From Candidatus Kerfeldbacteria bacterium (GTDB taxonomy: Bacteria > Patescibacteriota > Patescibacteriia > UBA9570 > XYC2-FULL-38-9), in the NCBI GenBank assembly GCA_016182555.1, contig JACPGJ010000007.1, forward strand, positions 192,053-256,052: a stretch of 64,000 nucleotides of DNA, given 5' to 3'. Below are positions 70 through 28,011 of this stretch, one piece after another. Within the stretch, counting starts at the first letter, position 1; every line of letters begins with the position of its first letter. The position numbers and the translations under genes were made by a program. Below the pieces are notes generated by a model. It had not been told where the DNA came from. It worked only from the letters and a program-made list of their open reading frames with translations, and made no database searches.

Positions 70-1248
70 TCATAACGTAATAATTTCTTGAAAAAAATCT
101 TGCCATGGAAGAATAGATATAGAATCAAGGACACGTTTATGCGGTACACGACTCACACAATATAACACTGCTTCAGGGTACTGTTTACCAAATGAGCGCA
201 AATGACGCAAATCTGTTCCATCAATATTGTCGCTTGATTTTATTTCTACAGCAATTGTTTTACCCCGAGGTGTTTCTATAATTAAATCAATCTCAACACC
301 TGTAGACGAACGATAATAGCTGAATAGATAATCTCGTTTATGATATCGGGCAAGGCGCATCGTTTCCAGAATAACAAAATGTTCAAAGGCTGAACCAAAC
401 TCTGCGGTTCCCGGCTGCAATGGAACTCGAAGTTTTTTTGTTAATGCACGAACCACTCCCGTATCAAAAAAATAAAACTTTGGATGTTTAGTTAGTCTTT
501 GTCGCTGCGATTTTAAATACGGAAACAGAAATTGACCAATCAATGTGTCTTCTAACACCTGAAAATACGATTTAATGGTTTGGTATGATATGCCCGCCTG
601 ACGAGCAATATTTGAATAATTTATTTGGTTGCCATTTTCCATTGCCGCCAATGTGAGAAAACGCATAAACGGAGCAATGCCACGAATTTGAGCTTCGCGT
701 TCTATTTCTTCTTTCAAATACGTATCTACATAGGCATGTAAACGATCAATCGCCACTTCATCATCGTTTTCTATATATATTGAAGGTATTGTTCCAAATT
801 GCAATGCACGCATAAGGGAGAATTGTGGACCAAGTTCTTCTGTGGTGAGCGGAAACAGTTGATAGGTCAGCGCTCGGCCAGCAAGCAGATTCGCCTCGGA
901 GCGTTTGAGTTTACGTGCACTGGAACCAGTTAAAATAAAAAATGGGGCGTTGGGCTGTTCAATCAACCAATGTACTTCGTTAAGCAACGCCGGAATTCTT
1001 TGCACTTCGTCGATAATAATATGAGTGACTGTCGGTTTGCGTGCTTGTACTTCCGCTCGTAGTAATTCTGGATGCTCAGAAAACCGAAGATATTCTTCTG
1101 ACTTGAGTAAATCATAAGTAATTGTGTGTGCTGGAGCAAAAAGAGAGCGTAATAATGTACTTTTCCCTGTTTGACGTGGTCCAAAGAGGAAAAAACTCTG
1201 ATTTTTTGGCAATTGTATCTTTCTAGAAATCATACTTCTATAATACAC
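70..1248 (-). CDS. AAA-family ATPase (DUF4143-type ATP-binding protein)
   Basis: Walker A motif GPRQTGKST near the N-terminus. Length of about 390 aa and layout are typical of the AAA plus DUF4143 family. A paralog lies at 20971-22134. Confidence 0.7.
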   Translation of the reverse strand: MYYRSMISRKIQLPKNQSFFLFGPRQTGKSTLLRSLFAPAHTITYDLLKSEEYLRFSEHPELLRAEVQARKPTVTHIIIDEVQRIPALLNEVHWLIEQPNAPFFILTGSSARKLKRSEANLLAGRALTYQLFPLTTEELGPQFSLMRALQFGTIPSIYIENDDEVAIDRLHAYVDTYLKEEIEREAQIRGIAPFMRFLTLAAMENGNQINYSNIARQAGISYQTIKSYFQVLEDTLIGQFLFPYLKSQRQRLTKHPKFYFFDTGVVRALTKKLRVPLQPGTAEFGSAFEHFVILETMRLARYHKRDYLFSYYRSSTGVEIDLIIETPRGKTIAVEIKSSDNIDGTDLRHLRSFGKQYPEAVLYCVSRVPHKRVLDSISILPWQDFFQEIITL

Positions 1249-1287: not shown

Positions 1288-4287
1288 TTATTTTAGCACA
1301 ATATTTAAAATTTTTCCGGGGATGTAGATAACTTTCACCACACTCTTCCCTTCAATATGTTTTTGTACTTTTTCGGATTGCATCGCGGCGTCGCGAGCTT
1401 GGTTTTCTGATGAATCAACAGCAAGCGTAATGGTGTCGCGCATTTTTCCGTTTATTTGTACGGCCATGTTCACGGTTGTTTCTTTCACCAATTCCTCATC
1501 GTATTCTGGCCATGGTTGCTGAGCGATTTCTCCTTCAAAGTTGCATTGCTCCCATAACTCCGCCGTGATATGTGGCGCGAATGGTGAAAGAATGGTGATA
1601 AACAACTCAAACACCGATTGCGAAATCACCGGTTGTTTTTCAAATAGATTCAACGCAATCATCATCTGCGAAATAGCCGTATTGAAATCAAAACGATCTA
1701 TATCTTCTGTGACTTTTTTGATGGTGCGATGCAGTTCTGAAACGGTCGCTTTTTCTTCCGTCACATCTTTTTGCACTTTCTCTTTCAAGCGCCAAACACG
1801 ATCCAGAAACCGGCGAATGCCTTTTATGCTTTCTGTACTCCATGGTTTCATCTCTTCGAACGGACCCATAAACATTTCATACATGCGTAGTGTGTCGGCG
1901 CCATATTCGTTCACCACATCATCTGGGTTAATCACATTTCCTCGCGACTTACTCATTTTCTGATGGTCTGGTCCCAAAATCATGCCCTGGTTGCGTAGTG
2001 CCCCGAACGGCTCACGGCCAACCTCGGCTGGAATCAAACCAAAATCTTGCAACGCTTTATGAAAAAATCGTGCATACAACAAGTGCAGTACCGCGTGTTC
2101 AGCTCCACCCACATACATATCAACTGGCATCCACTGCTTCAATTTTTCTGGTGCAGCAAACATCTCTGTGTTCTTTGGGTCGCAAAAGCGCAAAAAATAC
2201 CAAGACGAACACGCAAATCCATCCATCGTATCATTTTCAAACCTCCAACCGTTGCCATACAATTTTTCTGCTCGCTCTTTCCACTCTACTGAACGCGCAA
2301 TTGGTGAATCTCCGGTTGGCCGGAAATCCACATCATTTGGCAATAACAAAGGTAAATGTTCTTCGCGAACTGGATGTATATTCCCTTCTGGGTCATACAC
2401 CATCGGAATTGGCGCGCCCCAATAGCGCTGTCGCGAAATTAACCAATCACGCAAACGGTAGGTTATTTTCTTGCGGCCACCAACTTTTTCACAAATTTTC
2501 CATTTCGCTTCTTCAGAATCTTCCCCATCAAATTCACCAGAATTTATAAGGTTACCACCACCAGCATAAACACTCTTTCCTACTAAAATATCCTTTAGTA
2601 CTTTTTGTTCATCGACATCAAACTGTGCCGTGCCGGGTAAAGCAGTAGATTGTATAGTAAGTGTATCCGGCTCAATAACACACACAATCGGCAAATCAAA
2701 CTTCTTCGCAAATTCAAAATCCCGTTCGTCGTGCGCGGGAACAGCCATAATGGCACCGGTGCCGTAGGTACCCAATACATAATCAGCAATCCAAATAGGT
2801 ATGCGTCGTCCGCTGCTTGGGTTCACGGCGTGTGCTCCGGTAAATACTCCGCTTTTTTCTTTATTCAAATCCGTTCGCTGCAAATCGGTTTTCTTTTTAG
2901 TGGCAGCAATATACTCTTCAACTGCTAAACGCTGTTGCGCAGAAGTAATCTGCGAAACCAACGGATGTTCTGGCGCAAGCACCATATAGGTTGCGCCGTA
3001 AAGCGTATCTGGCCGCGTGGTAAACACCGTAATCATTGGCACAGCCGCTTGTAAAACACTTGGCTCTTGAACCCCAGAAAAATGAGGCGTTTGAGCTTGT
3101 ACGAGAGTATAGGGCGCTTGTAAACGATCTGCCCACAGTTGACCATCACTTTCTGGCACCACATAATCACCGCTATCAAACAATACATGCAGGCGGGATA
3201 CATTGTTTCGAATGTGTACGAAACTAAATGGATATTGTACGGCTTTCGCCACCGTCGGACGGGCTTTGCCATCCAAAAAATTTGCTGTCGCTGGAGTGCT
3301 TACCAGAATAACACTCGCTAATTTTTTTGTTTCGGCAATGCGCAAAGCGACCAACCCACCAAATGAATGCCCAACGAGTACCGTCTGCTCATCAAGAGTA
3401 CATTGTTGCAACACCGCTTGCACTTGTTCTTCTAAATCTGGTGCCTCTGTATTCGGCAACACTGGCACTTGTACTTCATAGCCACGCTTAGTCAGTTCAC
3501 TCTGCAACCACGGTAAAAAATTGCTCATCGGTGAACCACCCTTTCCATGAATCAGAATAAACCGTTTTACTGGTGGTTGTGCTAAGACAAAATCAATCTC
3601 TGCGCCCTCAGAGCGTCCAATCCAATTTCGCTGCATGGCTTTAATCGGTTCTGGCCAATCCACTGCGTCCAAATCCTCCAGCAACTGCTGCGCATAGTCC
3701 GTGATTTTGAAAAACCACTGCTCTAAATCGCGTTGCACTACCGGATTTTTGCACCGCTCGCATGCGCCGTTCACCACCTGTTCATTGGCAAGTACCGTTT
3801 GGTCATGTTCACACCAATTCACTTTTGCTTTTTTGCGATACGCCAACCCGTGTTCATAGAATTGTAAAAACAACCACTGCGTCCATTTGTAATATGCGGG
3901 CGTTGAGGTATCCACTTCACGTGACCAATCATAACTCAACCCTAAACTTTGAATTTGACGACGAAAATTCTCAATATTGTTATGCGTTGAGGTATTCGGA
4001 TCTACACCAGTTTTAATGGCAAAATTCTCCGCTGGCAACCCAAATGCATCCCAGCCCATAGGGTGTAACACCTCAAATCCACGCATCCGTTTGTAGCGAG
4101 AAATAATATCTGTGGCGGTATACCCTTCCGGGTGCCCCACATGCAATCCTGCCGCTGATGGGTACGGAAACATATCTAAACAATAGAATTTTTTCATTTT
4201 CGCATCATCTGCAGCCGCAAATTGATTACGCTTTCGCCACTGTTTTTGCCATTTTGGCTCAATTTCTTGGGGGTTGTATTCATTCAT
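1288..4287 (-). CDS. leuS: leucyl-tRNA synthetase (class I) with an inserted alpha/beta-hydrolase-fold domain
   Basis: HVGHPEGY (HIGH), [13 protein letters not shown] and TTRPDTLYG motifs are present, and the sequence is colinear with bacterial LeuS. The 999 aa length exceeds the usual ~800-860 aa because of the insertion listed below. Confidence 0.95.
3034..3588 (-). other. in-frame alpha/beta-hydrolase-like domain of about 185 aa inserted in LeuS between the RSEGAEIDF and TVFTTRPDT motifs
   Basis: Segment [12 protein letters not shown]...[13 protein letters not shown] (GHSFGG nucleophile elbow, encoded at about 3355-3372). E. coli LeuS has only about 12 residues at this position. Confidence 0.6.
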
Positions 4288-5847: not shown

Positions 5848-6227
5848 TAAGCGAGAGTTTTTTTGATTTTTTCGACAATTTCGGCAGTGGTGAAATTGGC
5901 TTTCACCAAGTAATCTTTTGCACCAAGGCTCAACCCCTGTTGTACCTTACTCTCTTGGCCAAAATTACTGAGAATGAGCACAGGAATATTAGCGACCGTT
6001 TGATCAGCCTGCTTCTTCAACGCTTCTAACACCTCAAAGCCACTCATGCCAGGCAGCATGATATCAAGCAAAATAATATTTGGTTTTTCGGCAATGGCTT
6101 TTTGTAAACCACTTTCTCCATCTGTTGCCAGCACAATGTTAAACCCTTCTTTGGTGAGTTTCGTTGAGATCAATTCTGATAAAAATTTGTCGTCTTCGAC
6201 AATCAATACTTTAATTGGATCGGCCAT
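5847..6227 (-). CDS. single-domain response regulator (CheY-like receiver)
   Basis: KVLIVEDD...ILLDIMLPGMSGFEVL receiver signature with no output domain. Confidence 0.8.
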   Translation of the reverse strand: MADPIKVLIVEDDKFLSELISTKLTKEGFNIVLATDGESGLQKAIAEKPNIILLDIMLPGMSGFEVLEALKKQADQTVANIPVLILSNFGQESKVQQGLSLGAKDYLVKANFTTAEIVEKIKKTLA

Positions 6228-6287
6228 AATTGAGATAATTAATTCTTAATAGTATTATACGCTATAATACGGTAAAATACAACTACT

Positions 6288-6980
6288 ATGTCTTCTGGAA
6301 TACTTTACACCGTTGCCACACCAATCGGCCACCTCGGCGATATGACTGTTCGGGCTGTGGAAACCCTGAAAAATGTTGACCTCATTGCTTGTGAAGATAC
6401 TCGGGAAACCAAGAAACTGCTTGACCACTATAGTATCTCCACACGTATGACAAGCTATCATGCACAGTCAACACAGACCAAAGAGGATGCTATTTTGGCT
6501 TTGCTGGCGGATGGTCAATCGGTCGCGTTAGTCAGTGACCGCGGAACGCCCGGTATTTCTGACCCCGGCGCTCGGCTGATTCAACGCGCTGTAGCCATGA
6601 GCATAACCGTTGTCCCCATTCCAGGGGCCACGGCGGTTATAGCGGCCTTGCAAGCCTCTGGTGCAGCCATGAGCGAATTTTGGTTTCGCGGTTTTGTCCC
6701 TCATAAAAAAGGACGGCAAACATTTTTTCAAGAAGCTATTGCTCATACCGGCACCGTGGTATTTTATGAATCGCCTCATCGCATTTTGAAATGTTTGGAA
6801 CAGCTGATTCAGCTTGGCGTTGGTGAGAGAACAATGATCGTGGCACGTGAACTCACCAAAAAACAAGAGGAGTTTTTGCGTGGACCGGCAGAACAAATAC
6901 TGAATACTATGCAAGAACGCAAAATTGATTACGGTGAATTTGTGGTAATTTTAAATGCCTATCACCATACCAAAATATGA
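6288..6980 (+). CDS. rsmI: 16S rRNA (cytidine1402-2'-O)-methyltransferase RsmI (tetrapyrrole-methylase fold)
   Basis: N-terminus LYTVATPIGHLGDMTVRAVETLKNVDLIACEDTRETKKLL matches the RsmI consensus. Confidence 0.85.
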   Translation: MSSGILYTVATPIGHLGDMTVRAVETLKNVDLIACEDTRETKKLLDHYSISTRMTSYHAQSTQTKEDAILALLADGQSVALVSDRGTPGISDPGARLIQRAVAMSITVVPIPGATAVIAALQASGAAMSEFWFRGFVPHKKGRQTFFQEAIAHTGTVVFYESPHRILKCLEQLIQLGVGERTMIVARELTKKQEEFLRGPAEQILNTMQERKIDYGEFVVILNAYHHTKI

Positions 6981-6996
6981 CGAAAAGAAAATCCGT

Positions 6997-8568
6997 TTAC
7001 CATTCAAAACCAGCAGTATAACGAATAGCTTCTGCCAAGTGCACTGACTGTAACGGCTGCCCAGCCAAATCCGCAATGGTCAACGCTACTTTCAATGTTT
7101 TATGGTACCCACGCATGGATAAACGGTATTTTTCAACCGCTTGTCGCATCAACTGTTGTGATGACTGGTCCAAACTCACCATATTCATCAACTGTTTGGA
7201 AGAAAGCGCGGCATTGGGCTGACCCTGCCGTTGATATTGCCGCGTGCGTGCCGCTTCTACTCGTTGGCGAATCGTGGAGGAACGTTCACGTTGAGCGTCT
7301 GTGGTAGATTGCTGCTGGTGGATATCTTCGGTATTGATATAGGACACGGTCATTTTTATATCCATGCGGTCAAGTAACGGGCCGGATATTTTTCGTTTAT
7401 ACATTTCTATACTATAGGGCAAGCATTCACATTCTTTGTGCTTGCTGCGCTGCCCTTGTGCACGATTTTCCAAACCATAAAACCCACACGGACACGGGTT
7501 CATTGCTGCCACCACCATGCAGCGTGCCGGATAAGTTGCTTTCCCATGAATACGATGAATGGTCACACTGCCGGTTTCCAACGGTTGGCGCAGTGCTTCC
7601 AATAAATCACGCCGAAATTCTGGTAGCTCATCTAAAAACAGTACGCCGTGATGGGCAAGCGAAATCTCTCCAGGGCGCAGATGCACACCACCGCCAATAA
7701 TGGCTGTTGGTGAAGTGGTATGATGTGGCGCACGAAAAGGACGCTGCCAAATAATCGTGTTCCCCTGGTGCTCCACCAATGAATGAATCGTGGTTGCTTC
7801 AATCATTTCTGTGCTGGTCATGCGTGGTAAAATACTCGCCAACGCTTGTGCCAGCATACTTTTTCCCACACCAGGCGCGCCAACCATTAACAAATTGTGG
7901 CCGCCCGCTGCCGCGACTTCCAGTGCCCGCTTTGCCATCGGCTGGCCAACAATATCTTGCATATCCACGGGGTAGTGCGATAGGTGTTCATGAGGCTGTT
8001 GTTGATCGATGGCAGCAGGAATCGGACGTAGTGGATCAAGTTGCGCTTCGCTACAAAACACATCCACCAATGCTTTCAAGGATGACACCGGAAAAATATG
8101 CTGGCGTTGTTCTGGTTGTACCGCTAACGATACTTCTGGCGTATTCGCCTGCGGAATATAGATAGAACAATGCAAACGATTCATCGCCGTATCCACTAAT
8201 GGTAAGGCGCCCCGCACCGGTCGCAACGTGCCGTTCAGAGCCAGCTCACCAACAAAAAATTCTTGCGGTATTTGCGGCAGCACTCCAGACGCAGCAAGGA
8301 TACCAAGCGCGATAGGCAAATCAAACAGCGAACCAATTTTGCGTGTATGCGCAGGGGCGAGGTTCACGGTGACACGCGTCCGCGGAAACGGAAAACCAGA
8401 ATTTTTAATCGCGGAACGCACACGATCGCGTGCTTCAGAAACAGCAGCGTCGGGCAAACCGACAATAATAAACTGAGGAAGGCCATTGGCGACATCAACC
8501 TCAATATCTACAGGTGTGCAATCTAGCCCTTGAATGTTTAACGAACGAATTGTTGCAGTCATAAACAA
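6997..8568 (-). CDS. YifB/ComM family Mg-chelatase-like AAA ATPase
   Basis: N-terminal Lon-like region, Walker A GAPGVGKSM and a conserved C-terminus, all colinear with E. coli YifB. Confidence 0.85.
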   Translation of the reverse strand: MFMTATIRSLNIQGLDCTPVDIEVDVANGLPQFIIVGLPDAAVSEARDRVRSAIKNSGFPFPRTRVTVNLAPAHTRKIGSLFDLPIALGILAASGVLPQIPQEFFVGELALNGTLRPVRGALPLVDTAMNRLHCSIYIPQANTPEVSLAVQPEQRQHIFPVSSLKALVDVFCSEAQLDPLRPIPAAIDQQQPHEHLSHYPVDMQDIVGQPMAKRALEVAAAGGHNLLMVGAPGVGKSMLAQALASILPRMTSTEMIEATTIHSLVEHQGNTIIWQRPFRAPHHTTSPTAIIGGGVHLRPGEISLAHHGVLFLDELPEFRRDLLEALRQPLETGSVTIHRIHGKATYPARCMVVAAMNPCPCGFYGLENRAQGQRSKHKECECLPYSIEMYKRKISGPLLDRMDIKMTVSYINTEDIHQQQSTTDAQRERSSTIRQRVEAARTRQYQRQGQPNAALSSKQLMNMVSLDQSSQQLMRQAVEKYRLSMRGYHKTLKVALTIADLAGQPLQSVHLAEAIRYTAGFEW

Positions 8569-8644
8569 AAAACTCCTGCCTGCTGATAGGGCTAAAGGAG
8601 TCCAACGCTGCTACTCTAACACGCTACTAAAAATTGAGCAACTA

Positions 8645-8965
8645 TTAACGAGATTGAATTTTTTTTATCGTGGCAATAAGCGTATCTTGCTGGTCATCTG
8701 AGTGCATTCTGTTTCTTTTTTGGTGGCCGCAGCGGCGACAGGCATGAACGAATATATATTCGCCATGTTCTAATTGAACATCGACTACATCCATGAGCCC
8801 TCCACAATCGGCTTGCCGGTCTCCAGGAAAAATATCCACGTGCTTGGACAATAAACAACGAGGGCAGTGATTACGGTATCCGTCCCCCTCTACTTGTTTG
8901 CCGCACGCTTCACAGACAAAATCCTCAACTCGTTTTTGAAATTGTTTTGTTGGCTTGTGGTGCAT
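8645..8965 (-). CDS. RNHCP domain protein (Cys-rich)
   Basis: GYRNHCPRCLLSKHVD motif plus further CxxC pairs. The start was chosen at the internal Met MHHKPTKQF, because the long ORF overlaps lspA. Confidence 0.6.
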   Translation of the reverse strand: MHHKPTKQFQKRVEDFVCEACGKQVEGDGYRNHCPRCLLSKHVDIFPGDRQADCGGLMDVVDVQLEHGEYIFVHACRRCGHQKRNRMHSDDQQDTLIATIKKIQSR

Positions 8966-14514: not shown

Positions 14515-17500
14515 TTATGATGCTGAAGTACGAAATGCACGCTTTTTCGATACATGAGAAGTATTATTTTTATTGAATCGCGCCTTCACAGTGAAATAAT
14601 ATGGGGTATTAGCATCTAACCCTTCTACGGTTAACTGATGCTTTTTAACAATATATTTCTGTACTAAGTCGCCATTCTTTGTATACACATTCACCACGTA
14701 TGAACTAATCACGCCAACCGGCTTACTCCAGCGCAATTTTGCTGTTTCCGCAGTGAGTTGACTTGCCTTCAGCCCAATGGGTGGAGTTGGCAGTGTACGC
14801 GTATTGAGCAGATCAGAGAATTCTGATTGAGAGCCGGTCGAACCAATCGAGCGAATTTTGAAACTATATTTCTTGTTCGCTTTCAATTTCTTAATCTTTT
14901 TGGTGAGCTTGTCGGTTGTCACCGTTTTCACCAACTTCCCGCTCTTACGGTTAATCACTTTAATCTGATATGAAGTCGCATCTCCTTCTTCATTCCATGA
15001 CAATGTGATTGCTTTTGCAAATTGAGTATCGACCGCGAAACCTGTGGGAGCTTCCAACACACCATCCGGTGTTGAGTTATCATCGTTATCTTGACCACCA
15101 TCGTTTGAATTATCATCTGCAGCAATAATGCTGCCTACAGAGGTAATAGAAAACGCAGAGAAATGATCCACACTGACAGTATAGGTATTATTCTCTGTAT
15201 CCACAACCGTACTGGGAACATCAACCCATGTGCCACCAGCTTCGTCATAATAACTCATATCCAATTCTTCTTCCGTCACGCCGGCCGCTTCCAAATTCGC
15301 TTCGTCATAAGGAAGAGTAAGTGTGGCCGTTCCGGCTAATTCGGTCACTGGAGCATTATTATCATCCGTCACACTCACCTCAATACCATAACTGAGCGTT
15401 TTATCCTCTGGTTCTTGAGCGAGTTCCAATGTTGGCTCAAGCACTACGGTCACTTGATCAATATTTTCCGATGTAATGGAATTTGCCGGCAAACTTAATT
15501 CTGTGCCATCCTCCAACGTCATCACCGCAGCATTTTGAGGATCAAATTGCGCTGTTTGCGCTTCTGGCAACTCCAAAAATTGCGTCAACAACACACTAAC
15601 GGTTTCTGTTGCAGAATCAACCACCACTTCAGACTGTTCGCTGTAATAGGAATTCTGACCAATTTGTTGCACCGCCGTGATATAGACCGTATCACCAATG
15701 ACTGCGGGAATTTCAAAATTACCATTCTCATCTGTTGTCGTTGTATAGGAATATCCATAGAGTGAATAGCTCGACACATACGCATTGGCTACACCATCGC
15801 CCTCTGCTAAGGTTCGACGATTGTTCACCGTAATGCCATACCCATCAACGATGGTACCGCTAATCGTTGCATCAGAATTTCCAAATTGGAGTGTGAGACC
15901 AGTTGCGCTCCCTGCGGTATCCGCGGTGACAGTAACCGTTTGCGGATCAATATAGTAGGTTGGTGAAGATGCGCTGACATAATACGTTCCACTTGGCACA
16001 TTCATACTGAAATTGCCATCAACATCGGAATATACATACAATTCAATATGGCCATACAGATCTTCGGTGTCACTGGTATTCTCTCCGTAACTCGTTGAGG
16101 CCTGTACATATCCTCCTTGAACGGCGTTTCCATCGGCATCAAGTAACGTACCAGAAATGGTCGCATCCGCATTTAATACATAGAGATTGAGAGATACTGT
16201 TTCATCTGCTGCTGGAGTGATTGTTTGTGAAGTATTGCCATAAGACATGTAATTATCATACGTCCAATAGCTCACATTCCACGTACCGGCAGAGAGTTTT
16301 AATGTATAATCAGATGTTCCAGCAACATACGCGTAGGTCCACCCACCATTTTCGCTACTGGCATAGACATACCCATACACATCCACCGGATTACTCTCTT
16401 GGTCAAGGAATTGACCAGTCACCGTGACATCATTTTCCAACATTTCAAGGGTCACATCTTTTGTTTCCGCTATTTCGGTAGTCACACTGGATGCGGCGAC
16501 ACCATCAATTTTCATACCGCTATAACTATACGTCGTTGTATCTGCAGTATAGTAGTATCCACTATACGAATAATACGACACGGCATAAGCTGTTTCAGAA
16601 GGAACATCCACGGTACAGGAACCAGAGTAGACATAGCAACCAAGCGACCACCACCCGCCTTCAGCATTTGGGTCATACACCGACACCCAACCATATTCGT
16701 TGGACAGTGCATTGCCGCTGTTATCTTTTGCAGTGAAACTGAGTGTTGAATCAGCGACTTGCAATAAGAAATTAATATCGCCAACGGTTTCACCATCGCC
16801 AACGGATACCACCTGACAACCGCCGGTGTACACTAAACTTCGGCCTAAATCATCAGTTAATCCCCAAGACGAAATACAAACTTGCCACTCACCATCAGTC
16901 ACTTGTAATTGATAAGAACCATCATTACTCGTGGTACCTGACGCCCATGCCCAGGTGCTATTTTCGTATGCATAGAGATAAATATTACCTACACCACCAG
17001 TGTTGGAAGTGGAAACAGTTCCTGTAATACGACTATTACGTGCTTTCAACGTAATGGTGCCCAAATCCACCGTTTCATTCTCTGCCACTTCTAACGGATC
17101 AATGGATGGGAAGGTATATCCGCTTCCCCAATCAGAGAAATAGCCATACACCGTAAATGTCCCTTCAGTGACCGGCATGGTGAATTGTCCATTGGCATCA
17201 GTATATCCATAGGTATACACGCTATTATTTTCCCCACCAGACGCATACAGATAAACCGCATACTCTCCAACCGGTAGACCGGTCTCTGGGTAGACAATCG
17301 TTCCCGTAATGTTAGATGTGTATCCCTCCACTTCAATGGCTAATGTTTCTGTTTCTACAGTACTGTCATTGGCAAATTCAACATACACGCTTCCGCCGGT
17401 GTAACTCCACGTGGAAGGGTAGGTGGTTGGATAAAGATACAAGCTCCATCCACCGCCAGTCACACTAAAAGAAAATGCACCCGTTGAATCTGTATTGGCA

Positions 17501-18927
17501 TACGCCCATGCCCAGTTGGAGGTATTATACGCATAAATATAAGCGTCCGTTACCGCCGTACCACCATTGCTGACCGTGCCTGAAATGGTTTTTGCTGCCG
17601 TAACTAATTCCAATGATAATGGAGTAATCGCCACACCCGCAGTAACAGAAATTTGTTGCGATTCTGGAGCAAAATATCCTTCTGGTAAACCATAATTACC
17701 TACATACAACGTGTAGGTATCTGTCACACCAAGCGCAAAGGAAAAATTACCCGAAGCATCGGTACAGGAATACCGATACACTGTCCAGTTCGTATTATAA
17801 ATCGACAAACAGACGTTACTGGCAACAACACCACCGGCCGTTACTGTTCCGGAAACTTCAGAAGGCGGAATGGAGATGGGATCAGCTAAACCCGATTCTA
17901 TTCCACTACTCACCGTAAAGGTATAAGAAAAATAATTATAATTGGTCGCAGATTGCGCAACATATAATGTATAGGTGCCGTCGGCAGCAAAACCACTAAT
18001 TTTTCCATCCGAATCTGTGGTACCTGATACCCAATTGGACCAATTTGCATCATACCAATACCAATATGAACCACTCACTGGATCTCCATTTTCATCTTCA
18101 AAATGTGTGACCACATTTGGTGCGGTGAACGAATATTCCACTGGCCCCATCGCCGTACCATCATACGTGAGCGTGGTTGCGCTTGGAACACTATTGGTGG
18201 TGGCTGCGCCATAATAGGAGAAGGAAACGCTATAGGTTCTATTCGTCGTTAAACCGGAAAAATAGGCCTGACCTTCGCTATCTGTTGTACCGGAAAAATA
18301 TTCGTACGTGCCGTCAGCGCCATAATAATTGACATACACATACACATCAGCAATAGGAGTCGTACCGTCAGCATCAGTGAGTAATGCAGTAAAATCAATT
18401 TGACCATAAGTCACCGTATCAGAAGCTGAAAAATAGATATAGGAATCTACACCGGACTCAGAACCATACAAACTAAAGGCTCCACTTGCTTCTACATTTG
18501 CTGGATTTTCTACACCCACAAGCGTAACAGAAACTGTTGCACCAGCAGCGAGATCGGCTGTGGGATAAAAACTCACCGATGTTTCTGATTGATATGACAC
18601 AGTTAATTCATTTGATGTAATCACCGCATTTGCCATATTCACCGATTCGGATGTATACACCGAATCAACGTAGCCATAGAGCAACGGCGAGGATAAAGAG
18701 ATATACCCTGCTGTGGTCATGGCCGTGGGCATGGTGAACGTGACGGTCAATGTGTCTGAAGCACCGGAACTCGTGTCAGTGGTAGCCACAGAGAAGTCAG
18801 TGACTTCATAGGAAAGATAATCGTAGGCATCGGCGCGTTGCGAAGGAATCAGCACGCCGAGCAGAAGAACAGCAGACATCAAAACCACTGTTTTGACGTG
18901 TGCAATGATACGTGAAGTAAAGTTCAT
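14515..18927 (-). CDS. giant secreted Ser/Thr/Tyr/Gly-rich surface protein with tandem Cna-B/prealbumin-like repeats and two C-terminal fibronectin-III domains
   Basis: Signal peptide after MNFTSRIIAHV...ADA. Repeated GTVS.GG.AV.DAYIYAY.-type beta-sandwich repeats. C-terminal FN3-like modules (APTGFAVD...YQIKV and PPIGLKASQL...YVVNV). Confidence 0.8.
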   Translation of the reverse strand: MNFTSRIIAHVKTVVLMSAVLLLGVLIPSQRADAYDYLSYEVTDFSVATTDTSSGASDTLTVTFTMPTAMTTAGYISLSSPLLYGYVDSVYTSESVNMANAVITSNELTVSYQSETSVSFYPTADLAAGATVSVTLVGVENPANVEASGAFSLYGSESGVDSYIYFSASDTVTYGQIDFTALLTDADGTTPIADVYVYVNYYGADGTYEYFSGTTDSEGQAYFSGLTTNRTYSVSFSYYGAATTNSVPSATTLTYDGTAMGPVEYSFTAPNVVTHFEDENGDPVSGSYWYWYDANWSNWVSGTTDSDGKISGFAADGTYTLYVAQSATNYNYFSYTFTVSSGIESGLADPISIPPSEVSGTVTAGGVVASNVCLSIYNTNWTVYRYSCTDASGNFSFALGVTDTYTLYVGNYGLPEGYFAPESQQISVTAGVAITPLSLELVTAAKTISGTVSNGGTAVTDAYIYAYNTSNWAWAYANTDSTGAFSFSVTGGGWSLYLYPTTYPSTWSYTGGSVYVEFANDSTVETETLAIEVEGYTSNITGTIVYPETGLPVGEYAVYLYASGGENNSVYTYGYTDANGQFTMPVTEGTFTVYGYFSDWGSGYTFPSIDPLEVAENETVDLGTITLKARNSRITGTVSTSNTGGVGNIYLYAYENSTWAWASGTTSNDGSYQLQVTDGEWQVCISSWGLTDDLGRSLVYTGGCQVVSVGDGETVGDINFLLQVADSTLSFTAKDNSGNALSNEYGWVSVYDPNAEGGWWSLGCYVYSGSCTVDVPSETAYAVSYYSYSGYYYTADTTTYSYSGMKIDGVAASSVTTEIAETKDVTLEMLENDVTVTGQFLDQESNPVDVYGYVYASSENGGWTYAYVAGTSDYTLKLSAGTWNVSYWTYDNYMSYGNTSQTITPAADETVSLNLYVLNADATISGTLLDADGNAVQGGYVQASTSYGENTSDTEDLYGHIELYVYSDVDGNFSMNVPSGTYYVSASSPTYYIDPQTVTVTADTAGSATGLTLQFGNSDATISGTIVDGYGITVNNRRTLAEGDGVANAYVSSYSLYGYSYTTTTDENGNFEIPAVIGDTVYITAVQQIGQNSYYSEQSEVVVDSATETVSVLLTQFLELPEAQTAQFDPQNAAVMTLEDGTELSLPANSITSENIDQVTVVLEPTLELAQEPEDKTLSYGIEVSVTDDNNAPVTELAGTATLTLPYDEANLEAAGVTEEELDMSYYDEAGGTWVDVPSTVVDTENNTYTVSVDHFSAFSITSVGSIIAADDNSNDGGQDNDDNSTPDGVLEAPTGFAVDTQFAKAITLSWNEEGDATSYQIKVINRKSGKLVKTVTTDKLTKKIKKLKANKKYSFKIRSIGSTGSQSEFSDLLNTRTLPTPPIGLKASQLTAETAKLRWSKPVGVISSYVVNVYTKNGDLVQKYIVKKHQLTVEGLDANTPYYFTVKARFNKNNTSHVSKKRAFRTSAS

Positions 18928-19163
18928 ACGTTGACTGCAGTTATGAATAAAATTGATTATAAAAAAACCGCTCTTATGTGCGGCGTAATACAAAAAAACG
19001 ATCGTGAATAATTCTTCTGGTTTTGTTTTGTGATCCTCCTCATCCTCCGCAATTTTTTTTAACGGCTGTACTTTTTATAGTATACCAAATTTTTTCGCAA
19101 ACGTACAGAGCTCAATAATACAGTTATTCACAGGTCTCTCTTGCGGTGTGCGACCACTGGTTA

Positions 19164-19856: not shown

Positions 19857-20828
19857 ATGAGTAATAAAAGCCAAATTCATCGATTAAAAATAGAATTTTT
19901 AGAATACCTAGAAGTAGAAAAAAACCGATCAAGCAAGACGGTACAAAATTATGATTTTTATTTAACGCGCTTTATTTCCGAAACTGGAGTACGAAGTGCG
20001 GCAGATATCACATTGCCGAAAGTGAAACGATTTCGTGTCTGGTTGAACCGTATGGCAAATGAGCGGAACCTCACCGGTACCCTGTCGAAGAGAACACAAA
20101 ATTACCATATAATCGCGCTGCGTAGTTTTTTGAAATATTTAGCGAAGATGGATGTATTGTCTTTAGCACCTGAAAAAATTGAACTCGCCAAAGAAGGTCA
20201 ACGGCAAGTAGAATTCTTGGAAGAAGATGAATTAGAGCGCATTGTGGCCGCACCGTTATTCGACAAACAGGGTGAAGCAGTAACAAAGCCAGGGCTGATT
20301 CAAATTCGCGACAAAGCACTAATGGAATTATTATTTTCTACAGGCTTGCGTGTATCTGAAGCCGCGGGTTTGCGCCGTGAACAAATACACGTAAAACGTG
20401 ATGAGTTTACCGTGCGCGGAAAAGGATCGAAATTGCGTGTCGTATTTTTGAATGATAGAGCGCGCAATTGGTTGAAGCGCTATTTGGATGCGCGTGGCGA
20501 TACATCAATGTATGTATTTGTCAGCCACGACCGCGCTAAAGCAAAAGGTCGCCGCAAAGAAGAAGATAAACCATTAAGTCCACGCTCTATTGAGCGACTC
20601 GTGGAAAAATATGCGCGACAAGCGGGCATTGTAAAAAAAGTGGGACCTCACACGATTCGCCACAGTTTTGCGACCGATTTATTACGCAATGGAGCTGATA
20701 TTCGTTCAGTGCAAGCCATGCTGGGGCATGCTTCTATTACTACCACGCAAGTATACACTCACGTGACCGATAAAGGCCTACGCGAGGCACACAAAAAATT
20801 TCACGGGAAAGGACGAAAAAATCAATAA
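19857..20828 (+). CDS. tyrosine site-specific recombinase (XerC/XerD family)
   Basis: N-terminal SAM-like core-binding domain. Catalytic region includes HTIRHSFATDLLRNGADIRSVQAMLGHASITTTQVYTHV (R, H-R, Y). Confidence 0.85.
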   Translation: MSNKSQIHRLKIEFLEYLEVEKNRSSKTVQNYDFYLTRFISETGVRSAADITLPKVKRFRVWLNRMANERNLTGTLSKRTQNYHIIALRSFLKYLAKMDVLSLAPEKIELAKEGQRQVEFLEEDELERIVAAPLFDKQGEAVTKPGLIQIRDKALMELLFSTGLRVSEAAGLRREQIHVKRDEFTVRGKGSKLRVVFLNDRARNWLKRYLDARGDTSMYVFVSHDRAKAKGRRKEEDKPLSPRSIERLVEKYARQAGIVKKVGPHTIRHSFATDLLRNGADIRSVQAMLGHASITTTQVYTHVTDKGLREAHKKFHGKGRKNQ

Positions 20829-20970: not shown

Positions 20971-22134
20971 ATGATTATTCCTCGACATATTACAACTGAG
21001 CTGCTTGAAAAAATAACCAATTTCCATAAAGTGGTAGTGTTATATGGTCCCAGACAGGTCGGAAAAACCACGCTCTGTCATGAAATTATCGAAAAACTCC
21101 ACCTGCCCACACTGTCTATTTCTGCAGACGAATCACGATATATTCATGTACTTTCTAGTCGAAATAGCCAAAGAATGCGACAATTGATTGGTGAGAACAA
21201 ATTATTGTTTATTGATGAAGCGCAACGTATTCCAGATATTGGTATTAATTTAAAAATTTTGATTGATCAATTTGTCGATCTCAAAATTATTGCCACGGGC
21301 TCTTCTTCTTTTGAGTTAGCCAATTCCATATCTGAACCGCTGACTGGACGCAAATGGACATTTCATCTCTATCCAATCAGCCAACAAGAATTGCTACCGC
21401 TCATGACTCCGTTTGAAATAAAAGAACAATTAGAAGAGCGTTTAATTTGGGGATCCTACCCTGGTATTTTTGAATTCAGTAGTGCAGCTCTCAAAGAAAA
21501 ATATCTGTATGAATTAGAAGCAGACTATCTGTATAAAGATTTACTGAGTTTCCTTGATATACGAGGGGCGCAACGCATCAAAGATTTACTCAGCTTGTTA
21601 GCATTCCAAATCGGCAAAGAGGTGTCCATACATGAATTGGGAACACAACTTGGTATGCACAACGATATGGTACTGCGTTATCTTGATTTACTCGAAAAAA
21701 CATTTTTAATTTTTCATTTAGGTGGCTTCAGCCGTAATTTACGAAAAGAAATCAGCAAGAAAAAAAAATATTACTTTTATGACCTCGGCATTCGTAATCT
21801 CGTTATTGGCCGATTTGCTCCATTGTCACAACGTGAAGACCACGGTGATCTGTGGGAAAATTTTTGTATTGTCGAACGCATGAAATACCTTGCCTATAAC
21901 CAACAATATGCAACATCTTATTTTTGGCGTTTATATAGTGGTGCAGAAATTGATTACGTCGAAGAGCGAAACGGTGCACTGTATGGTTATGAATTCAAAT
22001 GGTCACAAAGAAAAAAACCAAAAACTCCGCGCACTTGGAAAGCAGAATATCCAACAGCCACTTATACTGTTGTGAATCCGGATAATTACTTATCTTTTGT
22101 CACTGATAGTGATGTAGATGCGGATATTTCTTGA
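20971..22134 (+). CDS. AAA-family ATPase (DUF4143-type), paralog of 70-1248
   Basis: Walker A GPRQVGKTT. Same architecture and length as the ORF at 70-1248. Confidence 0.7.
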   Translation: MIIPRHITTELLEKITNFHKVVVLYGPRQVGKTTLCHEIIEKLHLPTLSISADESRYIHVLSSRNSQRMRQLIGENKLLFIDEAQRIPDIGINLKILIDQFVDLKIIATGSSSFELANSISEPLTGRKWTFHLYPISQQELLPLMTPFEIKEQLEERLIWGSYPGIFEFSSAALKEKYLYELEADYLYKDLLSFLDIRGAQRIKDLLSLLAFQIGKEVSIHELGTQLGMHNDMVLRYLDLLEKTFLIFHLGGFSRNLRKEISKKKKYYFYDLGIRNLVIGRFAPLSQREDHGDLWENFCIVERMKYLAYNQQYATSYFWRLYSGAEIDYVEERNGALYGYEFKWSQRKKPKTPRTWKAEYPTATYTVVNPDNYLSFVTDSDVDADIS

Positions 22135-23456
22135 GCGCGTTTCGTCAAATATTCTTCCGTATTCAGTGATGGGTCTTCGAGAACGTCTTCGAGCAGCGCT
22201 TTCATTATTTCACCCACGCCGCGACCAGGGGTGAGACCCGTAATACGCATAATATCATTACCATCAATTTTGAGCATAGTGGTATCCATAGGGTCTTTTT
22301 CAACCATACGAATACGACGTTCCAATTCAATGAGTTTATAAGGTTTTTCTTTTTGTGTGCCAGAACCCATGCGGTCGCCGATGCGAATGGCCATGAGATC
22401 GTCGAGGTTTTCACGGCCGATGCGTTTAATAAGGCGACGTACTCCGGCATCGGTAATTTCACCAGTGTTATAGTAAAACATGTGCTGGCTCACCAAATGC
22501 GCAATGCGGTCACAGTCTTTGCGAGAAAATTTCAAGCGCTCCATCATTTTACGCACCATGCGACCACCAACATGTTCATGAGCGTGGAAACTGCTGTTTG
22601 GCCCATCGCCTTCTTTCACACGCGGCTTGCCAACATCGTGTAGCAGCGCAGCGAAAAGCACCAGTGGGTCATCAGACGGACAGAATTGCATAGAAAACAA
22701 ATTATGCGTGAGCACAGTATAGATATGGTGTTTATTTTGTCCGACACCAGAACCTTCTTCAAGCTCCGGAAGAATGTGTTGCAGCAAACCGCTGGTGTGC
22801 ATTAACCAAAAACCACGGTACGGGTCCTCTGCGTTGAGCGTCTTCAGTAATTCATCTCGAATACGTTCACCTGAAACACGCAAAATATTTTTACCAAGAT
22901 GTTGAATCGCGGTAAATGTTTCGTCTTCAATATGAAAATCGAGTTGTGCAGCAAAACGCGTGGCCCGCAACATACGCAGAGCATCTTCATTGAAGCGTTC
23001 TTCTGGTTTGCCAACCGTACGAATCAATTTACGCTGACAATCTTCTTGTCCACCGAACAAATCAACAATTTTGTTGCCATTGAATGCCATGGCGTTGATG
23101 GTGAAATCACGGCGCTTGAGGTCTTCTTCCAGCGACACACCAAATTTCACGCTGTCAGGGTGACGTTGATCGCTGTACTCCGCTTCCGCACGGTACGGGG
23201 TAATTTCTATTTCATGCCGCATGCCTTGCTCCCCTGGCATGCGCACAACCACTGTGCCGAAATTATTATTGTACAGTGTATCGGCAAATGTTTTTTGAAT
23301 CTGTTCAGGTGTCGCATTCGTGGTCATATCAAAATCGGTGGGCGTACGGCCAAGAACGAGGTCGCGCACCGAACCACCAACAACGTATGCGTCAAAACCA
23401 GCATCATGCAGTTGCGTGAGTGCCTGTTCAACATATTGGGGCAATAAAAATTTCAT
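22086..23456 (-). CDS. cca: CCA tRNA nucleotidyltransferase / poly(A) polymerase family enzyme with HD domain
   Basis: PolA head GGSVRDLVLGR...DFDMTT, followed by an HD domain (HDVGK) and a C-terminal extension. Confidence 0.85.
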   Translation of the reverse strand: MKFLLPQYVEQALTQLHDAGFDAYVVGGSVRDLVLGRTPTDFDMTTNATPEQIQKTFADTLYNNNFGTVVVRMPGEQGMRHEIEITPYRAEAEYSDQRHPDSVKFGVSLEEDLKRRDFTINAMAFNGNKIVDLFGGQEDCQRKLIRTVGKPEERFNEDALRMLRATRFAAQLDFHIEDETFTAIQHLGKNILRVSGERIRDELLKTLNAEDPYRGFWLMHTSGLLQHILPELEEGSGVGQNKHHIYTVLTHNLFSMQFCPSDDPLVLFAALLHDVGKPRVKEGDGPNSSFHAHEHVGGRMVRKMMERLKFSRKDCDRIAHLVSQHMFYYNTGEITDAGVRRLIKRIGRENLDDLMAIRIGDRMGSGTQKEKPYKLIELERRIRMVEKDPMDTTMLKIDGNDIMRITGLTPGRGVGEIMKALLEDVLEDPSLNTEEYLTKRAQEISASTSLSVTKDK

Positions 23457-23471: not shown

Positions 23472-23548
23472 TGGTGTCCTCGGCAGGAGTCGAACCTGCG
23501 GCCTTCGGTTCCGGAAACCGACGCTCTATCCAACTGAGCTACGGGGAC
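23472..23548 (-). tRNA. tRNA-Arg (anticodon CCG), CCA encoded
   Basis: Cloverleaf folded by hand: D arm GCTC/GAGC, anticodon stem TCGGT/ACCGA with loop TTCCGGA, T arm GCAGG-TTCGACT-CCTGC. One C-A mismatch in the acceptor stem. Confidence 0.85.
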
Positions 23549-23576: not shown

Positions 23577-23648
23577 TGTCCCCGGCAGGAATCGAACCTA
23601 CATCTTCGGCTTAGAAGGCAGAAGCTCTATCCGTTGAGCTACGGGGAC
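23577..23648 (-). tRNA. tRNA-Arg (anticodon TCT), 3' A of CCA not encoded
   Basis: Perfect acceptor stem GTCCCCG/CGGGGAC. Anticodon loop CTTCTAA. T arm GTAGG-TTCGATT-CCTGC. One mismatch in the anticodon stem. Confidence 0.8.
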
Positions 23649-24336: not shown

Positions 24337-24412
24337 GGTGGCCATGGTGAAACGGTTATCACGACAGTTTGTGGTACTGTCATTACGGGTTCAATTCCCG
24401 TTGGCCACCCCA
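24337..24412 (+). tRNA. tRNA-His (anticodon GTG) with encoded G-1 and CCA
   Basis: G-1 is opposite discriminator C73. Perfect acceptor GTGGCCA/TGGCCAC, D arm GTGA/TCAC, anticodon stem ACAGT/ACTGT with loop TTGTGGT, T arm ACGGG-TTCAATT-CCCGT. Confidence 0.9.
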
Positions 24413-25216: not shown

Positions 25217-25957
25217 TTATTTTACTTCTATCGTTTGCGCTCCCAACCAAGAAAGATAATATGCCTGCCGCATAGCATCTGCAATTGCTTTACTTTCAAT
25301 AATAACTGACATATTTTCAGCATAGTTCATGAAGGCCACTTTATTGTTATAGATATTTACTTCAATCTCTGGCCAAAACACATTACGAGGAACAATGAGT
25401 GTTTCCGCCAATTCTGATTGATCATACTTCTTATGTTTTGTATGCCACACTGATCCACTCCCAGCAATGCGCTTAGCATGTATGTTTAACTTCATGCGTT
25501 CCGAAATATAAGCGTGGTCTTTTGGAAATTGGTCAAAATAGGCATTCGTATTCCATTCTAAGATTTCATCTGGCCGCTCCCGCAAGGTATCATCATACAC
25601 ATTCTGAATCGCATGTTTTCCTTCATAAAAAACTATTTTCGGTTTGGTTTCACTTTTGTTATAGATCGCTTCTAACTCAGGAAGTGCGTGAGCAATTTTT
25701 TTCTGTAGCTCTGTAGCGAAGGATAGAAGTTTACTTGGGGATTCAGCAATATAGCGATATTTACCACGTACTTTAGATTTACCAACGATACCTTTTTTCA
25801 CCAACATCTCTAATATCGAATATGTGGTTGTACGTTGTAAATTGGCCTTTTTTGCAATATCTTGAGCAGAAGATAAGCCCATTTCTAAACTGGCAATATA
25901 GACTTTGGCTTCATTCTGAGAGAAACCCAACTGTTTAAGTAATGGTTCAAATTTCAT
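25217..25957 (-). CDS. TrmB-like transcriptional regulator (winged HTH plus C-terminal TrmB-type domain), island paralog 1
   Basis: N-terminal LKQLGFSQNEAKVYIASLEMGLSSAQDIAKKANLQRTTTYSILEMLVKKGIV matches the TrmB HTH. C-terminal block KPKIVFYEG...NIYNNKVAFMNY...IIESKAIADAM is shared with all paralogs. Start set at MKFEPLL. Confidence 0.7.
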   Translation of the reverse strand: MKFEPLLKQLGFSQNEAKVYIASLEMGLSSAQDIAKKANLQRTTTYSILEMLVKKGIVGKSKVRGKYRYIAESPSKLLSFATELQKKIAHALPELEAIYNKSETKPKIVFYEGKHAIQNVYDDTLRERPDEILEWNTNAYFDQFPKDHAYISERMKLNIHAKRIAGSGSVWHTKHKKYDQSELAETLIVPRNVFWPEIEVNIYNNKVAFMNYAENMSVIIESKAIADAMRQAYYLSWLGAQTIEVK

Positions 25958-26147
25958 ATTGTAAATTGATAAAATGACGAAACACATTTAGTCATTTTAA
26001 TACTATATAATACTTAATTTATAGTCAAATTTAGATATTTATTTGTTATTTTCGTCATTTTTGACGAAAAATTTATACATTATTTTTTCTATTATATACT
26101 TGTACGTTCCTCGGAATGAATTTGAGGAACAAGGAGGTAAATCAAAA

Positions 26148-26402
26148 ATGAAAAAGCACCTTTTATTCCTTCTGTTGTTGGTGCTCACTGCCTGTCCTAC
26201 CAAAACTTCTGATTTCAATAGGAGCAAGGAGGTAAAACCACCCACAACAGCAGGAGAATCAAGTCAATGGGTGAGGGAGCTATCCTATTCGTCTGCTCCG
26301 CTCATTGGCGATGCCTCTCGTTTAAAAACAGATACCAATAAATGCTACCTCGTAGTGAGAGGTGGACATGGAATCGCACTTGTAGAGACGCCTTGTCCTT
26401 AA
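26148..26402 (+). CDS. small lipoprotein (cargo gene of module 1)
   Basis: GGAGG RBS 8 nt upstream. MKKHLLFLLLLVLTAC lipobox signal peptide. Confidence 0.55.
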   Translation: MKKHLLFLLLLVLTACPTKTSDFNRSKEVKPPTTAGESSQWVRELSYSSAPLIGDASRLKTDTNKCYLVVRGGHGIALVETPCP

Positions 26403-26411
26403 TTAAAGGAA

Positions 26412-27280: not shown

Positions 27281-27377
27281 ATATATTGATTATTATTTAA
27301 ATTCATTTTATATTTATTTGTTCTTTTTGTCAAAATAGTGCGACAAAAAGAATAGACTTTAACTCATGAGGTTTGTT

Positions 27378-28001: not shown

Positions 28002-28011
28002 AAAATATACA

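Follow-up and report, generated by a model that had tools for sequence, protein, structure and literature searches.

The 64,000-nucleotide stretch of Candidatus Kerfeldbacteria DNA analyzed here, hereafter the window, carries on its minus strand a leuS gene (1288..4287; 999 residues plus the stop codon) for a leucyl-tRNA synthetase (LeuRS) of the bacterial type, within which a serine hydrolase domain of the YdeN/RBBP9 family is nested in frame. The inserted domain comprises 185 residues (residues 234-418; 3034..3588, minus strand) and belongs to a subfamily that is overwhelmingly associated with leuS, both in cis, at four or more sites within LeuRS, and in trans, as a gene abutting leuS. The hydrolase is apparently active, being predicted from its conserved residues to be catalytically competent, and on balance we favor the view that it is a selected accessory hydrolase dedicated to LeuRS, probably providing a second hydrolytic quality-control activity. 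What appears to be new here is the nested architecture and the dedicated link to leuS: the fold family, the host enzyme and the automatically annotated public proteins were already known.

The hydrolase stands in for the approximately 8-residue tip of the first β-hairpin of the CP1 editing domain: in insert-free close relatives only about 8 residues are found at this tip (e.g. [22 protein letters not shown]). A previous reading of this DNA from its sequence alone (the sequence-only reading) had described about 185 in-frame residues at the entry to CP1, between the LeuS motifs [13 protein letters not shown] (residues 221-233) and TVFTTRPDT (residues 420-428), where it counted about 12 residues in E. 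coli. Both flanks lie as it placed them, the length and position of the segment are exact, and the figure for E. coli is of the right order. It had further noted an α/β-hydrolase signature and suggested Ser_hydrolase or RBBP9/YdeN-like proteins as the family, which is borne out by profile, structure-database and model comparisons. Searched on its own, the insert recovers the Pfam Ser_hydrolase family (PF06821; E=5e-9, 36.7 bits against a cut-off of 22), along with generic α/β-hydrolase families; among PDB sequences it matches Bacillus subtilis YdeN (1uxo; E=7e-10) and human RBBP9 (E=9e-9), while homologous inserts match it with E-values of up to 1e-37 or better, all well outside what chance would give. 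At E-values of up to 1 its Pfam matches are restricted to the α/β-hydrolase clan, plus a marginal match to M60-like_N (E=0.12); none of the known editing-domain families, namely CP1, INS/YbaK tRNA_edit, tRNA_SAD/AlaX and DTD, is matched at this threshold, and the insert would hence constitute a new class if it were to deacylate tRNA. A LeuS-specific insertion domain of non-hydrolase fold, another possibility that had been raised, does not explain the segment.

Structure prediction gives a consistent picture. An AlphaFold2 (AF2) model of the insert alone, built from a 50-sequence alignment, has a predicted local distance difference test score (pLDDT) of 97.2 and a predicted template-modelling score (pTM) of 0.93. 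Its best PDB neighbors in Foldseek are 1uxo, 7oex, 2qs9 and 9fcr, with template-modelling (TM) scores of 0.82-0.85 and root-mean-square deviations (rmsd) of 2.3-3.1 Å (0.83-0.85 and 2.3 Å for the first three, with a TM score of 0.84 for 1uxo and 7oex); after the YdeN/RBBP9 structures there is a clear gap, with other α/β-hydrolases reaching a TM score of 0.75 at most and E-values of 4e-8 or worse. In a model of the full-length LeuRS, the insert scores 89-98 pLDDT per ten-residue block and its junctions 81-88. Here the hydrolase domain is held on an extended two-stranded ribbon: the strand 225-235 runs outward and the strand 418-423 returns, leading directly into the Thr-rich peptide of the editing site.

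The elements of the predicted active site, all encoded on the minus strand, were likewise anticipated by the sequence-only reading and are all present. The HG oxyanion-hole motif, HGKGGSP (residues 247-253; 3529..3549), follows the first strand of the hydrolase (E242-246), and the nucleophile elbow, GHSFGG (residues 306-311; 3355..3372), lies between the strand E302-307 and the helix H309-320. The putative catalytic residues are Ser308 (codon TCA, 3364-3366), Asp374 in DSGDYVVP (codon GAT, 3166..3168) and His402 in PHFSG (codon CAT, 3082..3084), which align, respectively, with Ser75, Asp138 and His165 of RBBP9; the RBBP9 sequence used in this alignment agrees with the published residue numbers (PMC8866121) and with the PDB sequence alignment. 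Judging by these sequence features and the models, the segment is almost certainly a complete YdeN/RBBP9-family serine hydrolase with a lid-less α/β fold of about 180 residues and an intact Ser308-Asp374-His402 triad.

An origin of the segment as an artefact or an intein is effectively excluded. The G+C fraction across the insert (0.44-0.48) matches that of its flanks and of the rest of leuS. The identical 999-residue protein is encoded on two independent assemblies, a 32-kb Logan contig and a 293-kb NCBI contig, which rules out the assembly chimera that had been contemplated for the segment. The junctions, between F233 and V234 and between M418 and I419, lack the residues needed for intein splicing; Pfam detects no Hint, intein or endonuclease domain in the segment; and in the models the whole inserted segment is accounted for by the hydrolase fold. 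The earlier exclusion of inteins is thus upheld.

An index-free protein search with the insert against 1.84 billion representatives yields 1603 matches at E ≤1e-3 and 292 at E ≤1e-10. The notion that the insert is unique, suggested by a word-indexed search that returned only 7 free-standing hydrolases, was overturned by the index-free and full-length searches. Four insertion sites can be distinguished in LeuRS: the first CP1 hairpin (site 1), the ZN-2 region (site 2), the interior of CP1 (site 3) and the region before the CP1 linker (site 4). Among the best 150 of the 1603 matches, with host identities checked by Pfam, the hydrolase is at site 1 of a LeuRS in about 34 clusters; ten LeuRS carry it at site 2, just past RQRYWGxPIP...CxxC; one has it at site 3; and about 85 are free-standing proteins of roughly 180 residues. 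Further hosts in these best 150 are ValRS, IleRS (with an additional histidine phosphatase domain), AlaRS, SecA, adenylate kinase (Adk) and TsaD. Site 4, located before the LDWPE helix, is occupied in two LeuRS (L002 and P0209). The sequence-only reading had proposed that related LeuS be aligned to follow the insert: in the 120 nearest LeuRS clusters, the hydrolase is found at site 1 in 55, of which sixteen contain an additional Nudix domain within CP1 and one a second hydrolase at site 3. Seven more bear it elsewhere (four at site 3, two at site 2, one at site 4), and the rest comprise one with a Ham1-like domain at site 1, four with Nudix only and 53 without an insert. Going by the taxonomic names supplied by the source databases, the named bearers are Kerfeld-, Sung-, Doudna-, Uhr- and Komeilibacteria, Paceibacterota, Saccharibacteria/Saccharimonadales, Lipton- and Levybacteria and the 'Patescibacteria group', all from the candidate phyla radiation (CPR).

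The bias towards LeuRS is recovered independently of the host. A scan of metagenome contigs with two peptide patterns derived from the hydrolase only, and hence free of any LeuRS information, returned 71 confirmed loci, in 59 of which the hydrolase lies inside a LeuS-like open reading frame (ORF): at site 1 in 47, in two more that are truncated, at site 2 in nine and at site 4 in one, with a Nudix box also present in eighteen. In the same scan one free-standing hydrolase adjoins a leuS-like ORF and another lies 977 nt upstream of an insert-bearing leuS; eleven free-standing copies have no leuS in their flanks, and these are all the most distant matches (≤33% identity).

Free-standing members of the subfamily show the same association in trans. 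Of nine such homologues whose genomic context was sampled, seven were informative (P0013 and P0036 were not), and six of the seven abut leuS on the same strand. Four precede it: P0009 ends 2 nt before the leuS start, P0014 ends 6 nt before an 809-residue LeuS, P0033 ends 24 nt before a 957-residue LeuS that itself bears a Nudix insert and P0025 ends 36 nt before an 801-residue LeuS. P0041 starts 2 nt after an 806-residue LeuS and is followed by a Sua5 gene. The sixth, P0028 (locus L089), is the first gene of a tight same-strand operon that encodes, in this order, the hydrolase, a second hydrolase, a YbaK-like tRNA_edit protein, a Ham1-like protein and an archaeal-type LeuRS, the last with 657 bits to NF008957 over a truncated product of 606 residues. 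The seventh, P0032, does not adjoin leuS; neither does P0001, a more distant control of the classical type. P0009 might have been a miscalled piece of a leuS that is split or recoded, but this was rejected: a complete leuS with its own ATG and a normal N-terminus begins 2 nt past the hydrolase stop codon.

The predicted catalytic residues are under strong conservation across the subfamily. In an alignment of 146 domains that are 30-50% identical, the Ser is retained in 144, the acidic residue in 134 (Asp in 123 and Glu in 11) and the His in 139, those without an equivalent of His402 being mostly truncated sequences; the His and Gly of the HG motif are conserved in 95% and 91-94%, respectively. 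Overall, the entire triad and the HG motif are kept in about 95% of roughly 200 diverged members, the window's domain included. The LeuRS-nested forms and their closest free-standing relatives have in common a signature of their own, made up of FDF, F-x-D...R-P, a C-terminal E-P and, at the position of the Trp of classical members, E-Q. The rate of evolution of the insert is about 2.2 times that of the LeuRS core, and the nearest relatives of the window's insert are other site-1 inserts, at about 50% identity. In a neighbor-joining tree (without support values) of the cores of 120 LeuRS, the window's LeuRS emerges at the root of a large clade lacking the insert and is the only insert-bearer there. 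Core and insert distances are weakly correlated (Mantel r=0.22; 4 of 2000 permutations), which is compatible with mostly vertical descent accompanied by many losses, although transfer is possible as well. On this sequence evidence, the module appears to be old, mostly inherited and repeatedly lost.

The host LeuRS is otherwise canonical and, with HIGH, KMSKS and all CP1 editing residues kept, is predicted to be editing-competent. Its sequence is the same as that of the NCBI entry 'MAG: leucine--tRNA ligase [Candidatus Kerfeldbacteria bacterium]', and it scores 1032.5 bits against NCBIfam TIGR00396 (leuS_bact; cut-off 548.4), in a match that the insert splits into two stretches; the full-length AF2 model (pLDDT 90.2, pTM 0.79) superimposes on LeuRS-tRNA complexes of E. 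coli (4aq7) with target-normalized TM scores of 0.85-0.86 in Foldseek. The N-terminal part (residues 1-233; 3589..4287, minus strand) comprises the first half of the Rossmann fold, the ZN-1 region and the first strand of the CP1 hairpin: Pfam tRNA-synt_1 covers residues 12-223, the HIGH motif takes the form HVGH (residues 49-52; 4132-4143), and [13 protein letters not shown] (3589-3627, minus strand) is assigned to the first hairpin strand by motif position and by the strand E225-235 of the model. The Thr-rich peptide of the CP1 editing site, TVFTTRPDT (3004..3030, minus strand), starts two residues past the end of the hydrolase domain. A further CP1 editing-site motif, [15 protein letters not shown] (residues 509-523; 2719..2763, minus strand), is alike in relatives whether or not they have the insert. 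Across 58 aligned LeuRS, both insert-bearing and insert-free, Thr423 and Thr428 of the former peptide and G509, G511, H519, D520, R522 and D523 of the latter motif are invariant; we take its two Asp to be D342 and D345 in E. coli numbering. The rest of the protein (residues 524-999; 1291..2718, minus strand) contains the C-terminal part of CP1, the RQRYWG region (residues 619-624), KMSKS (residues 777-781; 1945-1959), the anticodon-binding domain and the C-terminal domain; Pfam tRNA-synt_1_2, corresponding to CP1, matches residues 418-601 (E=2.7e-60) and Anticodon_1 residues 847-959. Within the 64-kb window neither a second leuS nor a free-standing homologue of the hydrolase was found.

Nearly all the hydrolase-bearing LeuRS that were compared keep the CP1 motifs intact. 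As these motifs are intact with or without the insert, the hydrolase is likely to add to CP1 editing rather than to replace it; that it substitutes for a degenerate CP1 site was accordingly rejected for the window and for nearly all other bearers. As a separate observation, two LeuRS that adjoin a free-standing hydrolase (L082, 2831-4558; L095, 1078-3498) have a degenerate Thr-rich peptide, YDSVPQT for FTTRPDT, and retain the HDERD motif; their CP1 site may be a variant or a weakened one.

From its completeness as a hydrolase, its nesting in an intact LeuRS and its membership of a leuS-associated subfamily, we infer that the domain is a selected accessory enzyme acting together with LeuRS. The sequence-only reading had left room for a neutral domain insertion; the conservation of the triad, the four sites in LeuRS and the free-standing copies operonic with leuS argue against such a passenger. 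We are thus fairly confident that the domain has a selected function linked to LeuRS. That this function is the hydrolysis of an aminoacyl derivative, as quality control of a mis-product or by-product of leucylation, is suggested by analogy and held with somewhat less than even confidence. In such a mechanism Ser308, anchored within a few residues of the CP1 editing pocket, would attack the carbonyl of an ester, thioester or anhydride in the mis-product or by-product. Candidate substrates would be the 3' end of mischarged tRNA-Leu, a released non-cognate aminoacyl-adenylate and homocysteine thiolactone, which arises when synthetases edit homocysteine; the outcome would be a second hydrolytic quality-control activity alongside the intact CP1 site. 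The YbaK-like partner in the operon with the archaeal-type leuS points to aminoacyl-tRNA quality control.

Two characterized hydrolases offer a lead, and only a lead, as to this chemistry. RBBP9 is acylated by one hydrophobic amino acid at a time (Leu/Ile, Met, Phe, Tyr or Trp), provided that the α-amine is free, and its investigators consider that amide, ester or thioester bonds may be cleaved (PMC8866121). BPHL (valacyclovir hydrolase), likewise a serine α/β-hydrolase, acts on α-amino-acid esters, including aminoacyl esters of nucleoside analogues, and on homocysteine thiolactone (PMC4198189, PMC10261862). These substrates indicate that such chemistry is feasible for an α/β-hydrolase fold; BPHL nevertheless belongs to a different α/β-hydrolase family, with a lid, and is an analogy for possible substrates only.

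Several observations weigh against the favored reading or counsel caution with it. The pocket of RBBP9, formed by the α-amine anchor Glu108 and a cage of Tyr99, Leu103, Phe140 and Leu141, is not kept, the corresponding residues in the window being Pro, Pro, Phe, Val and Val; in the family alignment the Glu108 column has Pro in 54 and Glu in 21 of the 146 sequences. With the anchor being Pro in the window and in most LeuRS-type members, the aminoacyl specificity of RBBP9 is not simply transferable. The insert domains are near neutral (median isoelectric point, pI, about 6.7) rather than basic, and thus give no sign of binding RNA on their own; as a search for a basic, tRNA-binding surface, this says little or counts slightly against one. 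That the domain is inserted at four different places makes an exact positioning with respect to the tRNA CCA end less likely. Nudix, Ham1-like, HAD and even transposase-like domains are likewise inserted at these LeuRS sites, and the hydrolase is also nested in ValRS, IleRS, AlaRS, SecA, Adk and TsaD, which would fit a general tolerance of insertions. Finally, the nearest relatives of the window's LeuRS, at 65-70% core identity, are without the insert, and parsimony requires at least nine gains or losses among the 120 LeuRS; such repeated loss implies that the insert is dispensable for aminoacylation as such.

The main rival to a dedicated accessory hydrolase, which we nonetheless consider rather unlikely, is an autonomous house-cleaning esterase or peptidase that rides on the essential and constitutively expressed leuS to secure its own expression in a streamlined genome, with no mechanistic link to leucylation. 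The nesting of the same family in the six other hosts, the presence of the classic house-cleaning folds Nudix, Ham1-like and HAD at the same sites of CPR LeuRS, the repeated loss of the insert with LeuRS motifs visibly unchanged and the existence of close free-standing forms are all in line with this explanation. However, random piggybacking would be expected to scatter the domain over many essential genes, whereas 59 of the 71 loci in the scan blind to LeuRS fall in LeuS, with at least four independent insertion sites in LeuRS, and six of the seven informative free-standing copies abut leuS, either upstream or downstream. One of these leuS operons, moreover, combines an archaeal-type LeuRS with a gene from a bona fide aminoacyl-tRNA deacylase family.

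A role in amino-acid supply is quite improbable. Here the domain would be an RBBP9-like aminopeptidase that frees N-terminal leucine or other hydrophobic residues from imported peptides to feed an auxotrophic CPR cell. CPR bacteria are generally without amino-acid biosynthesis, and the hosts of the domain include LeuRS, IleRS, ValRS and AlaRS; the residues trapped by the RBBP9 aminopeptidase would also suit this role (PMC8866121). Against it, the amine-binding Glu108 and the aromatic cage are not conserved; partners such as the YbaK-like deacylase, the Ham1-like NTPase and Nudix fit a supply role poorly; and there is little obvious gain in channelling free leucine to a single synthetase. Marginally less probable still is that the fold is non-catalytic: a structural, regulatory or binding module that docks a protein or the body of the tRNA, with its triad kept for stability or ligand sensing. 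RBBP9 was originally described as a binding protein, the domain is modelled rigidly on its two-stranded stalk (junction pLDDT 81-88; pTM 0.79) and a few members have an altered elbow (GISFG, GRSLG or GASLG); yet these variants retain the Ser, the triad and HG motif persist in about 95% of the diverged members, and the near-neutral charge hints at no RNA binding. An artefact or selfish element, be it a chimera, a frameshifted fusion or an intein-like or mobile insertion, has a negligible chance of being correct despite the patchy distribution among LeuRS and a transposase-like domain at site 1 of one of them (P0095), as the in-frame segment of uniform G+C, in a protein identical on two assemblies, has homologous inserts placed identically, to the residue, in dozens of LeuRS with 50-58% identity, lacks intein-type domains and splice residues, and is modelled confidently across both junctions.

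Comparison with known systems places the accessory hydrolase as follows. With YdeN (1uxo) and RBBP9 (2qs9, 7oex; PF06821/DUF1234) it has in common the lid-less fold (about 180 residues), the HG motif, the GHSxG elbow and a triad that follows the order Ser-Asp-His; it differs from them in being nested in another enzyme rather than free-standing, in an identity of only 20-29%, in its subfamily signature and in lacking the Glu108 of RBBP9. Its host has the defining motifs, the fold (TM 0.80-0.86) and the CP1 residues of canonical bacterial LeuRS such as those of E. coli (4aq7/4arc) and Thermus thermophilus (2bte); these solved enzymes (762-876 modelled residues) have no additional domain at the CP1 hairpin, in contrast to the 185-residue hydrolase of the window, and none of the solved LeuRS in the Foldseek list has an extra hydrolase domain. 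The YbaK/ProXp trans-editing factors (tRNA_edit, PF04073) resemble the subfamily in being small hydrolytic proteins genetically tied to a synthetase, but are unrelated to it in fold and catalytic mechanism; AlaX and DTD are further free-standing trans-editing factors that act on aminoacyl-tRNA. To our knowledge, no α/β-hydrolase of this kind has been described as an aminoacyl-tRNA deacylase. An architectural parallel among curated families is the isoleucine--tRNA ligase with an N-acetyltransferase domain (NCBIfam NF040702, a curated 'exception' family), again a class Ia synthetase fused to an unrelated small enzyme, though with a GNAT domain and an IleRS host in place of Ser_hydrolase and LeuRS; no curated NCBIfam model exists for a LeuRS with Ser_hydrolase. 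A full-text literature search found no description of a hydrolase-nested LeuRS or of a dedicated association with leuS, in keeping with the sequence-only reading, which knew of no LeuS with an esterase-like insert. In a 2026 survey of domain insertions, the LeuRS editing domain appears only as an insert and never as a host (PMC13114784).

The hydrolase is near-exclusive to leuS, keeps its triad and occurs beside a YbaK-like deacylase and nucleotide pyrophosphatases, which makes it a testable candidate for an additional quality-control activity; synthetase editing is thought to be limited to a small closed set of folds, namely CP1, INS/YbaK, the AlaX/ThrRS N2 domain and DTD. If the assignment is true, the YdeN/RBBP9 family, which is poorly understood, would for the first time be given a physiological setting. 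A bolder proposal, which we advance tentatively and with some doubt, is that LeuRS-type hydrolases are an unrecognized class of proofreading factors that deacylate mischarged tRNA-Leu or destroy released non-cognate aminoacyl-adenylate or homocysteine thiolactone, acting in cis when nested and in trans when encoded beside leuS. Together with the YbaK-like, Ham1-like and Nudix modules they would form a LeuRS quality-control toolkit specific to CPR bacteria, which are ultrasmall, and perhaps shared by organisms whose LeuRS is of the archaeal type.

More generally, CPR LeuRS is apparently a hotspot for the nesting of small hydrolases of the α/β, Nudix, Ham1 and HAD folds in an essential enzyme, which bears on how streamlined genomes organize metabolite and translation housekeeping. 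The Nudix domain inside CP1 is seen in many CPR LeuRS (20 of the 120 nearest clusters and 18 of the 59 metagenome LeuS loci), often together with a site-1 hydrolase; examples are P0161, P0166, P0175, P0195 and L091 (4062-6935). A divergent Ham1/ITPase-like domain occupies site 1 in other CPR genomes (L004, 2-2644; L055, 2950-6219; P0232), and in P0019 the hydrolase and a Ham1-like domain stand in tandem. The Ham1-like protein of the P0028 operon (L089, 5112-5729), whose free-standing gene immediately precedes the archaeal-type leuS, is of the same subfamily as the site-1 domains of L004 (E=6e-40) and L055 (E=2e-36). Besides a hydrolase, the LeuRS P0065 has a HAD_2 phosphatase-like domain in the ZN-2 region (residues 428-583), and P0095, with its hydrolase at site 2, has a transposase-like segment at site 1 (residues ~250-400), recognized by eye only from a VMPEHVHLLV motif. 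Automated annotation misnames at least one such synthetase: P0276 (NCBI MGB4799994.1), a 1032-residue Saccharimonadales LeuRS with the insert, is entered in NCBI as 'alpha/beta fold hydrolase' because of its nested domain.

Two further features recur near leuS. In two Chloroflexota genomes leuS is immediately preceded, on its own strand, by a gene for a different and larger α/β-hydrolase (Abhydrolase_1/Hydrolase_4; L064, 1696-2400; L079, 2154-2912); these pairs may be a coincidence or may reflect a wider association between hydrolases and leuS. Proximity to the pathway for N6-threonylcarbamoyladenosine (t6A), which uses the acyl-adenylate threonylcarbamoyl-AMP, is also seen repeatedly: the hydrolase is nested in TsaD in P0074, and Sua5/TsaC-family genes lie by the leuS-hydrolase pair of L095 (4046-4654) and near the window's own leuS as assembled in L001 (8713-9000). 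In L001, which is the same locus in the second assembly with leuS on the plus strand, AAA_14/DUF4143 ATPase genes (6055-7218 and 7488-8741) come directly after leuS and are followed by a Sua5/TsaE fusion gene; in the window such ATPase genes are found at 70-1248 (minus strand) and 20971-22134 (plus strand).

Elsewhere in the window, a large protein of 1492 residues (14515-18993, minus strand) is probably a surface protein; its repeats are of the CarboxypepD_reg, transthyretin-like and fibronectin type III kinds. A few kb separate a tyrosine recombinase gene (Phage_integrase; 19857-20828, plus strand) from three clustered tRNA genes (23475-23548, 23577-23648 and 24338-24409), with a CCA-adding/poly(A) polymerase-family gene (22086-23456) between them; a further tRNA gene is found at 60132-60205. 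Nine paralogues of the TrmB family, each of about 255 residues with the winged-helix N-terminus of PF01978, are arrayed within 13 kb (25220-37960), and a tenth, more distant relative lies at 39199-40713. For a small genome, such local amplification of a regulator-like family is striking.

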